Shown: positions 18,037-20,270 of the stretch, one piece after another | Layout: each line of letters begins with the position of its first letter | Numbering within the stretch: position 1 is the first letter of the stretch | Sequence record: EU078592 | Direction: 5' to 3' (one strand) | DNA length: 42,925 nucleotides | DNA from: Escherichia phage DE3 | The notes under the pieces: generated by a model | What the model saw: the letters and a program-made list of their open reading frames with translations, nothing else | The model's database searches: none | Told to the model about the DNA's origin: nothing | Made by a program: the position numbers and the translations under genes

Positions 18037-18330
18037 TTATTTTGAGCAATACACACGCGCTTCCAGCGGAGTATAAATGCCTAAAGTAATAAAACCGAGC
18101 AATCCATTTACGAATGTTTGCTGGGTTTCTGTTTTAACAACATTTTCTGCGCCGCCACAAATTTTAGCTGCATCGACAGTTTTCTTCTGCCCAATTCCAG
18201 AAACGAAGAAATGATGGGTGATGGTTTCCTTTGGTGCTACTGCTGCCGGTTTGTTTTGAACAGTAAACGTCTGTTGAGCACATCCTGTAATAAGCAGGGC
18301 CAGCGCAGTAGCGAGTAGCATTTTTTTCAT
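18037..18330 (-). CDS. bor: Bor lipoprotein (serum-resistance moron), 97 aa
   Basis: MKKMLLATALALLITGCAQQTFTVQNKPAAVAPKETITHHFFVSGIGQKKTVDAAKICGG...; signal peptide plus lipobox. Confidence 0.93.
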   Translation of the reverse strand: MKKMLLATALALLITGCAQQTFTVQNKPAAVAPKETITHHFFVSGIGQKKTVDAAKICGGAENVVKTETQQTFVNGLLGFITLGIYTPLEARVYCSK

Positions 18331-18619: not shown

Positions 18620-19153
18620 TTAGCGTGGAAAGATTTGTGTAGTGTTCTGAATGCTCTCAGTAAATAGTAATGAATTATCAAAGGTATAGTAATATCTTTT
18701 ATGTTCATGGATATTTGTAACCCATCGGAAAACTCCTGCTTTAGCAAGATTTTCCCTGTATTGCTGAAATGTGATTTCTCTTGATTTCAACCTATCATAG
18801 GACGTTTCTATAAGATGCGTGTTTCTTGAGAATTTAACATTTACAACCTTTTTAAGTCCTTTTATTAACACGGTGTTATCGTTTTCTAACACGATGTGAA
18901 TATTATCTGTGGCTAGATAGTAAATATAATGTGAGACGTTGTGACGTTTTAGTTCAGAATAAAACAATTCACAGTCTAAATCTTTTCGCACTTGATCGAA
19001 TATTTCTTTAAAAATGGCAACCTGAGCCATTGGTAAAACCTTCCATGTGATACGAGGGCGCGTAGTTTGCATTATCGTTTTTATCGTTTCAATCTGGTCT
19101 GACCTCCTTGTGTTTTGTTGATGATTTATGTCAAATATTAGGAATGTTTTCAC
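18620..19153 (-). CDS. Hypothetical protein lambdap78 (YbcV-like, putative envelope protein), 177 aa
   Basis: 177-aa ORF in A/T-rich segment at expected map position. Confidence 0.75.
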
Positions 19154-19315: not shown

Positions 19316-19522
19316 ATGAATAAAGAACAATCTGCTGATGATCCCTCCGTGGATCTGATTCGTGTAAAAAATATGCTTAATAGCACCATTTCTATGAGTT
19401 ACCCTGATGTTGTAATTGCATGTATAGAACATAAGGTGTCTCTGGAAGCATTCAGAGCAATTGAGGCAGCGTTGGTGAAGCACGATAATAATATGAAGGA
19501 TTATTCCCTGGTGGTTGACTGA
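19316..19522 (+). CDS. Hypothetical protein lambdap79 (YbcW-like), 68 aa
   Basis: 68-aa ORF at expected map position. Confidence 0.65.
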
Positions 19523-19686: not shown

Positions 19687-19881
19687 TCATTCTTCATCAC
19701 TTTTAATTGATGTATATGCTCTCTTTTCTGACGTTAGTCTCCGACGGCAGGCTTCAATGACCCAGGCTGAGAAATTCCCGGACCCTTTTTGCTCAAGAGC
19801 GATGTTAATTTGTTCAATCATTTGGTTAGGAAAGCGGATGTTGCGGGTTGTTGTTCTGCGGGTTCTGTTCTTCGTTGACAT
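19687..19881 (-). CDS. Candidate small ribbon-helix-helix (Arc/Mnt/CopG-like) DNA-binding protein, 64 aa (hypothetical)
   Basis: MSTKNRTRRTTTRNIRFPNQMIEQINIALEQKGSGNFSAWVIEACRRRL...: basic N-tail, beta-strand, helix, G-x-S turn, helix pattern; hand-checked reverse-strand translation. Confidence 0.4.
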   Translation of the reverse strand: MSTKNRTRRTTTRNIRFPNQMIEQINIALEQKGSGNFSAWVIEACRRRLTSEKRAYTSIKSDEE

Positions 19882-20059
19882 GAGGTTGCCCCGTATTCAG
19901 TGTCGCTGATTTGTATTGTCTGAAGTTGTTTTTACGTTAAGTTGATGCAGATCAATTAATACGATACCTGCGTCATAATTGATTATTTGACGTGGTTTGA
20001 TGGCCTCCACGCACGTTGTGATATGTAGATGATAATCATTATCACTTTACGGGTCCTTT

Positions 20060-20270
20060 CCGGTGATCCGACAGGTTACGGGGCGGCGACCTCGCGGGTT
20101 TTCGCTATTTATGAAAATTTTCCGGTTTAAGGCGTTTCCGTTCTTCTTCGTCATAACTTAATGTTTTTATTTAAAATACCCTCTGAAAAGAAAGGAAACG
20201 ACAGGTGCTGAAAGCGAGCTTTTTGGCCTCTGTCGTTTCCTTTCTCTGTTTTTGTCCGTGGAATGAACAA
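20060..20270. other. cos: cos region (cosQ/cosN/cosB); virion left end GGGCGGCGACCT begins ~20081, right end ...ACAGGTTACG ends ~20080
   Basis: Exact lambda terminal sequences abut: ...CGACAGGTTACG|GGGCGGCGACCTCGCGGGTTTTCGCTATTTATGAAAATTTTCCGG. Confidence 0.93.

Follow-up and report, generated by a model that had tools for sequence, protein, structure and literature searches.

A conserved ylcI (DUF3950) gene next to cos, missing from the reference map of phage lambda, encodes a probable ribbon-helix-helix protein

The sequence analysed here, a stretch of 42,925 nucleotides from Escherichia phage DE3 (record EU078592; "the window" below), corresponds to phage lambda with its map rotated into a prophage-like arrangement. 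Because of the window positions of bor and of the mature end (Table 1), a window coordinate equals the lambda coordinate minus 28422, and the open reading frame (ORF) considered here, which is placed between lambdap79 and cos, is the complement of lambda 48109-48303. Its product, MSTKNRTRRTTTRNIRFPNQMIEQINIALEQKGSGNFSAWVIEACRRRLTSEKRAYTSIKSDEE, had been described in the initial annotation with the same coordinates, ATG codon, length of 64 aa and translation, all of which we confirmed. It had also been stated that the bor-cos segment is A/T-rich and that the Shine-Dalgarno sequence is weak; both statements are borne out, as the GC content of the segment is 35-44% vs 52-55% on both flanks, and the ATG is preceded, at a distance of seven nt, by a GGGG (cccc at 19889-19892 of the plus strand), whereas the homologous gene of the BP-4795 type has a better Shine-Dalgarno sequence, GAGGAAA. 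In the neighboring lambdap78, the mechanically delimited ORF comprises 177 aa from a GTG codon, with the DUF1398 domain at residues 49-167, and the K-12 homolog YbcV is annotated with 136 aa; judging from the span of the domain and the shorter YbcV annotation, lambdap78 may actually start at an internal codon.

Table 1. Positions of genes, protein segments and sequence elements around the ylcI-type ORF (window coordinates)
Feature	Position	Strand	Remarks
bor	18037-18330
lambdap78, DUF1398 protein, YbcV/YdfO family	18620..19153	-
lambdap79 (ybcW ortholog)	19316..19522	+	convergent neighbor
ylcI-type ORF	19687..19881	-	ATG start, 64 codons and TGA stop (19687-19689)
Codons 50-64, variable C-terminal tail	19690..19734	-
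Codons 37-49, conserved part of helix B, NFSAWVxEAC	19735..19773	-
Codons 19-32, helix A	19786..19827	-	AlphaFold2 helix
Codons 13-18, RNIRFP, predicted beta-strand of the ribbon	19828..19845	-	R16 invariant; I15 and F17 nearly so
Codons 1-12, basic Ser/Thr-rich N-terminal arm MSTKNRTRRTTT	19846..19881	-	4 K/R, 6 S/T
Shine-Dalgarno-like CGGGG, weak	19889..19893	-	7 nt 5' of the ylcI ATG
Inverted repeat ATCAATTAATACG-7 nt-CGTCATAATTGAT, candidate operator	19951..19983	.	70-102 bp upstream of the ylcI ATG
Perfect 15-bp palindrome TGATAATCATTATCA	20030..20044	.	six bp left of cosQ
cosQ GGGTCCT	20051-20057
Mature end	20080/20081

Comparison of the ORF product with family databases reveals that it belongs to the DUF3950 or YlcI/YnfO family. 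It passes the curated cut-offs of both Pfam (PF13132, DUF3950; 72.8 bits vs a cut-off of 25, E=1.9e-20) and NCBIfam (NF041551, 'YlcI/YnfO family'; 37.6 bits vs a cut-off of 30), it is matched end to end by phrog_949 (E=2.5e-35), and it possesses both the IRF motif and the family signature NFSAWVxEAC, which in lambda reads NFSAWVIEAC. The YlcI protein of E. coli K-12 (b4589, prophage DLP12) is 100% identical to the lambda product, with 2 synonymous nucleotide differences between the genes. The gene order in DLP12, essD-rrrD-rzpD-borD-ybcV-ybcW-ylcI-nohD, parallels S-R-Rz-bor-p78-p79-[ORF]-Nu1 of lambda, and the arrangement of strands among the neighbors (bor, the DUF1398 gene, ybcW/p79 and Nu1/nohD) is the same as well. 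The ORF, regarded initially as "unplaced", is thus identified both by sequence and by gene order as the ortholog of an annotated K-12 gene. The DNA of the gene is present in 4184 of 5426 complete E. coli genomes, in up to 12 copies per genome, and PGAP names these copies ylcI or ynfO. The initial remark that no gene is annotated at this position holds for the records J02459.1, NC_001416.1, HK629 and HK630, in which we found no feature there, but not for the RefSeq records of phages O276, 2G7b, ev243, BP-4795, YYZ-2008 and 2851, which list a 'YlcI/YnfO family protein' or a 'DUF3950 domain-containing protein'; the sole difference from K-12 ylcI, with nothing distinguishing the proteins, is that the gene is left unannotated in the lambda reference records.

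On these sequence grounds we regard the ORF as a real protein-coding gene, lambda's copy of ylcI. This assignment is made because of the homology (matches to Pfam, phrog_949 and NCBIfam) and not because of the length of the ORF, which alone is no evidence, since 4 kb contain 44 ORFs of at least 30 aa. As ylcI/DUF3950 is already known, we are dealing with an annotation gap in the classical lambda map and not with a new gene. The standard records of lambda, the reference temperate phage, omit a conserved, catalogued gene carried by about three quarters of the complete E. coli genomes; with ylcI added, the map is corrected. In the searchable literature we found no functional study of YlcI, YnfO or DUF3950.

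When 1.84 billion cluster representatives were searched exhaustively with HMMER, just 142 clusters were returned at E<=0.001, and many of these are noisy copies of lambda itself. The genuine divergent members exhibit 32-60% identity and come from Enterobacterales, including Salmonella, Klebsiella, Enterobacter, Citrobacter, Serratia, Pectobacterium, Brenneria, Xenorhabdus, Proteus, Morganella, Tatumella, Pantoea, Rahnella and others, one record being labelled 'Bisgaard Taxon 46'. Frame conservation in related phages had been proposed initially as a check of the ORF, and in these homologs, which represent many genera, the reading frame, the region of the start and the motif are indeed retained. 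In an alignment of 34 family sequences, R16, F37 and V41 are invariant, while I15, F17, I25, S38, W40, A44 and C45 are conserved in at least 90%. A second proposed check, the bias towards synonymous substitutions, was applied to the family and to the closest relatives of lambda. Family-wide, pN/pS is 0.37 in the core (residues 13-49), where synonymous sites are saturated (pS 0.70), 0.62 in the N-terminal arm and 0.78 in the C-terminal tail. Among the lambda-like copies, which vary at 14 sites (1/5/8 by codon position), pN/pS is 0.23 in the sense frame vs 0.21 in the wobble-sharing antisense frame, and the codon test on this set is non-discriminating because the copies are too similar and the antisense frame scores as well. 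The antisense frame contains a 50-aa plus-strand ORF (19757-19909) and is free of stops in 41 of 65 members, which we take to be a general property of that frame; neither this ORF nor an upstream ORF of 37 aa (19897-20010) gave a family match. Expression of ylcI is supported indirectly by a report that 'ybcW-ylcI' of K-12 constitutes a convergent excludon in at least 50% of E. coli RNA-seq samples (PMC12288877).

The N-terminal arm of the protein (5 K/R and 6 S/T among residues 1-13) exhibits a K/R-S/T pattern that is conserved across the family, and the loop between the two helices is 4-5 residues longer in many homologs than in lambda. A "G-x-S turn" had been recognized between the helices; its serine is well conserved (Ser38, at least 90%, preceded by Phe37, which is invariant), in contrast to Gly33. 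The model in Pfam extends over residues 21-49 alone, i.e. the two helices, leaving out the basic arm and the IRFP strand, and it starts at the internal Met21, where many database gene calls begin, too. The missing strand may therefore explain why the ribbon-helix-helix (RHH) character is not evident from that model.

The N-terminal 49-55 residues are common to proteins of the YlcI type (64 aa), the YnfO type (77 aa), the BP-4795 type (75 aa) and an additional version of 66 aa, which differ in their tails. Across the family the variable tail comprises 15-28 residues, and its type co-varies with the downstream gene, the two being swapped together. Because YnfO of prophage Qin (b4533) shares residues 1-49 with the lambda product without a single difference and ends in another tail, a junction of mosaic recombination can be located inside the gene, at about codon 50; at the DNA level, the ynfO-type copies match lambda over the first ~54 codons only. 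The site of the junction can be seen by comparing window positions 19690-19734 with Qin ynfO (locus L170, 3757-3990).

The initial annotation had noticed, by eye, a pattern resembling the Arc/Mnt/CopG repressors of the RHH class. An AlphaFold2 model calculated from an alignment of 23 sequences comprises an extended segment (residues 13-18) and helices at 19-32 and 37-60, predicted with moderate confidence (pLDDT 69), i.e. the strand-helix-helix topology of an RHH protein within ~45 residues; the model is a single chain, in which DSSP cannot assign the strand of the ribbon. Structure prediction thus recovered the anticipated topology, but a Foldseek search of PDB and BFVD produced no significant match. 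The chains listed by Foldseek are mostly NikR, MazE9, ParD2, HicB, Arc, VapB, NikA, CopG and phage 'RHH DNA-binding' proteins, and the best structural matches (1.2-2.3 A over 37-46 residues) are the RHH domains of NikR, PutA, CopG and antitoxins such as Rv0298, VapB12, CopA_SO, HicB and ParD.

Sequence profiles point in the same direction. A HicB-like PHROG is weakly matched by 9 of the 23 members (best E 8.3e-5) and an Arc-like PHROG by 3 (6.8e-4). Searches of PDB with DUF3950 profiles gave no significant match, the RHH protein CdbA appearing at E=0.35 with the core-only profile. Using hhalign and hand-entered sequences of Arc and NikR, we obtained an alignment of NIRFP with NLRWP of Arc (score 18.0), in the same gapless register as the one drawn by eye, and an alignment of 37 columns with the NikR N-domain (score 14.0); neither score was reached by any of 60 shuffles, and Cro, Xis, Rop and the Nu1 N-domain (likewise entered by hand) remained at chance level. 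The hhalign probabilities for the hand-entered sequences are 14% for Arc and 1.7% for Mnt, and there is no Pfam Arc match, i.e. no recognizable sequence homology to Arc or Mnt was detected. The lines of sequence, profile and predicted structure, none of them strong alone, agree, and RHH is likely the fold of YlcI, which is also the best reading of the pattern noted at the outset; we infer that the fold is dimeric. Two other candidates were rejected: a match to the tetherin coiled coil, as the first PDB profile was contaminated by columns of a C-terminal extension, and a match of the core-only profile to a short pAgo (E=0.14), which we judged spurious.

Like P22 Arc and Mnt, YlcI is small and phage-borne, with a helix-loop-helix following the strand and a Ser opening helix B. 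It differs from them in the near-invariant Trp and Cys of NFSAWVxEAC and in the location of its gene, which adjoins cos, whereas Arc and Mnt are encoded in an immI-type region. From canonical RHH proteins in general it is set apart by this distinct signature and by the variable length of the inter-helix loop.

Analysis of the genomic context reveals two kinds of surroundings. In lambdoid phages the gene always stands alone on the strand opposite to the late operon, directly beside the start of packaging, and this slot is kept despite the presence of different modules, namely Nu1/A in lambda and HNH-TerS-TerL in BP-4795 and in the prophage of locus L005. Location on the opposite strand and in AT-rich DNA fits the moron-like character suggested initially. 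Outside Escherichia most homologs sit in P4/PICI-like islands, in the neighborhood of genes for a P4-type integrase (17 loci), D5_N primase (14 loci), AlpA (12 loci) and sometimes AntA; here the DUF3950 gene is a lone opposite-strand gene, convergent with alpA-int and divergent from the replication operon. Locus L005 (E. coli, CP027459.1, 3713563-3725925) presents both kinds at once. A PICI-like island (~90-7876), containing int, a gene resembling alpA, two genes of the DUF3950 family and genes for D5_N primase, a TerS of its own and capsid, lies inside a lambdoid prophage, embedded in terL, where it follows a 93-aa N-terminal fragment of TerL (8040-8321), and the prophage has its own DUF3950 gene at 9576-9776. 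The arrangement matches that of the helper-embedded PICIs described earlier (PMC10111431).

We grouped the island homologs by the residues that precede I-R-F in the predicted DNA-reading strand, which yielded three subfamilies, and scanned 160 nt upstream of each gene. GGTGCAC-type inverted repeats were found in 11 of 14 loci of the xTKGIRFP subfamily (background 0.054 per 160 nt), GTTTAA(A)CA(C) repeats in 4 of 6 loci of the [Y/L]KGIRFP subfamily (0.008), and two GGTAnnTACC palindromes in all four loci of the KNIRFE subfamily, from Escherichia, Buttiauxella and Leminorella (0.006), these counts referring to motifs defined post hoc and to island loci that are not independent. The candidate cognate palindromes of the island paralogs are GGTACGTACC, GTTTAACAC and GGTGCAC; different subfamilies have no motif in common, except that one [Y/L]KGIRFP locus (L133) possesses a GTGCAC-like match. 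The subfamily-specific palindromes look like the sites of autoregulated RHH repressors, but AlpA, or a different regulator acting at the divergent promoter, could be what uses them.

Upstream of ylcI in lambda there are an inverted repeat with arms of 13 nt (19951-19963 and 19971-19983), a half-site with no other exact copy in the window, and a perfect palindrome next to cosQ. The latter is not known to have a described role; other lambda-like phages keep it as a palindrome with a changed central base (GATAATAATTATC). No further convincing copies of either element were found in the window. The BP-4795-type genes, the strand residues of which are identical to those of lambda, yet have neither the inverted repeat nor the palindrome, and we found no motif common to the lambda-type and BP-4795-type flanks, a single shared 10-mer being close to chance. 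The promoter scan revealed no minus-strand promoter for ylcI; inside the ORF, a single terminator-like site was detected on the plus strand, no more than chance would give. At window positions 20133-20245 the repeat search recovered direct and inverted copies of CGTTTCC(G/T)TTCT, the lambda cosB R sites bound by gpNu1, which were expected and constitute its positive control.

A GC-rich hairpin is conserved in the divergent intergenic region of the islands, ~150-170 nt upstream of the DUF3950 genes (e.g. 5484-5512 in L005, also L142, L148, L149, L154, L163 and L165). Its stem comprises 10-14 bp and its loop mostly 13 nt resembling AGTGTTCCAGCAC, or 7 nt in L142. Rfam searches of the lambda segment and 14 island loci detected only tRNAs and the int-alpA RNA, the hairpin having no match at the gathering threshold.

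With the fold and the context considered jointly, we find it reasonably probable that YlcI is a DNA-binding regulator of the RHH class, active as a dimer and produced from a moron-like unit apart from late transcription, and presumably an autorepressor. By analogy to known RHH proteins, the paired strands of the homodimer would read the major groove of DNA, with the invariant R16 and neighboring residues making the base contacts, and the most likely function of YlcI would be that of a small, sequence-specific repressor with palindromic repeats close to the ylcI promoter as its binding sites. The gene would form a separate, AT-rich, moron-like transcription unit next to cos; as this unit lies on the strand opposite to the late operon, ylcI is probably expressed independently of late transcription, e.g. 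from the prophage. In this putative role the family would resemble the divergent repressors of satellites and phages (SaPI Stl, the logic of lambda cI/cro): the island DUF3950 gene is likewise divergent from the replication operon, and similarly carries repeated palindromes in the shared intergenic region, although neither Stl nor cI/cro has homology to DUF3950. Descriptions of Gram-negative PICIs stress activation by AlpA and, in P4-like elements, immunity RNAs (PMC10111431). The earlier interpretation is thus partly supported, in that the gene is real and the RHH fold likely, while an antitoxin, which it had offered as an alternative, is disfavoured. Our additions to the known family are modest, namely the assignment of the fold, the strand omitted by the Pfam model, the subfamily-specific palindromes and the fusions with TerS described below; they do not overturn the current understanding, but the probable RHH fold provides a testable mechanism for the functionally uncharacterised DUF3950 family, and the palindromes together with the fusions point to satellite regulation as a subject for experiments.

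A different role, as a cos- or terS-proximal factor of packaging or of cross-talk with satellites, acting in terminase-cos recognition or in the interplay of helper and PICI, appears unlikely but has several observations in its favor. Besides the slot beside the packaging start, which persists while the modules change, and the perfect palindrome adjoining cosQ, they include two natural fusions of DUF3950 with the N-terminal HTH domain of TerS (P0198, L004 4714-5103, and P0255, L005 6001-6363). The HTH domain in these proteins (Pfam Terminase_2, E=1.6e-11) is 64-66% identical to residues 2-54 of the BP-4795-type, i.e. helper-type, TerS, compared with just 53% for the TerS of the island itself; the TerS oligomerisation region is absent. 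Paralogs are moreover common in P4/PICI-like islands, one of which is embedded in a helper. On the other hand, ylcI is located on the strand opposite to the late (packaging) operon, the island paralogs lie near int-alpA, away from cos or terS, the lambda-type and BP-4795-type flanks have no common motif, and there are just two fusion clusters among the 142 cluster representatives. PICI-encoded Rpp proteins redirect the helper TerS and have a TerS-like wHTH (PMC6739421). Rpp, a small satellite-encoded DNA-binding protein tied to TerS, resembles the fusions in the possession of a TerS-like HTH, but it consists of a wHTH and a coiled-coil dimer and is not an RHH protein, and YlcI of lambda has no TerS-like domain, the Terminase_2 HTH being present only in P0198 and P0255.

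The preferred reading of YlcI as a regulator can be extended to the whole family, with DUF3950 proteins representing a previously unrecognized class of RHH switches between lambdoid phages, as helpers, and P4/PICI-type satellites; we consider this extension quite doubtful. The island paralogs would then be autoregulated repressors of the satellite replication operon, and YlcI expressed from a prophage would bind near packaging or regulatory sites, by which it could influence the induction of satellites, the specificity of packaging or superinfection. The RHH-TerS-HTH fusions in helper-embedded islands hint at such a link.

That YlcI is an RHH antitoxin-like protein, either an orphan or the partner of the DUF1398 protein (lambda p78/YbcV/YdfO) in a two-gene module, we consider very unlikely. 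In its favor, RHH antitoxins (Rv0298, VapB12, CopA_SO, HicB-like) figure among the best matches by structure and profile, DUF1398 is the +1 neighbor in five loci, a co-oriented ydfO lies 57 bp downstream of ynfO in Qin-type prophages, and exchange of the C-terminal tail goes along with exchange of the downstream gene. The tail is, however, short and poorly conserved, and BP-4795-type phages as well as all island-borne homologs are devoid of DUF1398, which is not known to act as a toxin. Between ylcI and the DUF1398 gene, both lambda and DLP12 have p79/ybcW on the opposite strand. The reading is disfavoured because the defining adjacent, co-transcribed toxin gene is absent from lambda, where p79, located downstream, has the other orientation, and because PADLOC found no defence-system match of meaningful score for the ORF, p78, p79 or bor. 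Finally, a chance or decayed, unexpressed ORF, conserved through recent common descent of the cos-proximal DNA, would account for the weak Shine-Dalgarno sequence, the lack of a consensus promoter in our scan, the omission from the reference annotations and the equal scores of sense and antisense frames in lambda-like copies, but this possibility, raised in the initial annotation, is hardly credible in view of the curated Pfam and NCBIfam cut-offs that are passed, the frame, start region and motif kept at 32-60% identity across genera with saturated synonymous sites, and the transcription of the identical K-12 gene (PMC12288877).

The database searches also returned exact copies of the lambda right end in assemblies labelled Streptomyces, Kitasatospora, Cohnella, Pedobacter, Enterococcus, Shewanella and others, as well as in MAGs (loci L089-L118, L122, L125, L127 and L130; proteins P0001-P0120), and there is an NCBI entry 'YlcI/YnfO family protein [Staphylococcus aureus]'. 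These copies are often found on contigs of ~3.5 kb or at contig ends, and the pieces of ~3.5 kb look like an amplicon used as a sequencing control. The lambda right end in these assemblies is almost certainly contamination by control or spike-in DNA and not a real distribution of the gene. A related case is 'Campylobacter phage CJLB-4' (MW057783.1), deposited as a phage of Campylobacter jejuni: its sequence of 48361 bp has the length of the lambda genome and a right end 100% identical to that of lambda, and it is probably lambda itself, mislabelled or present as a contaminant.
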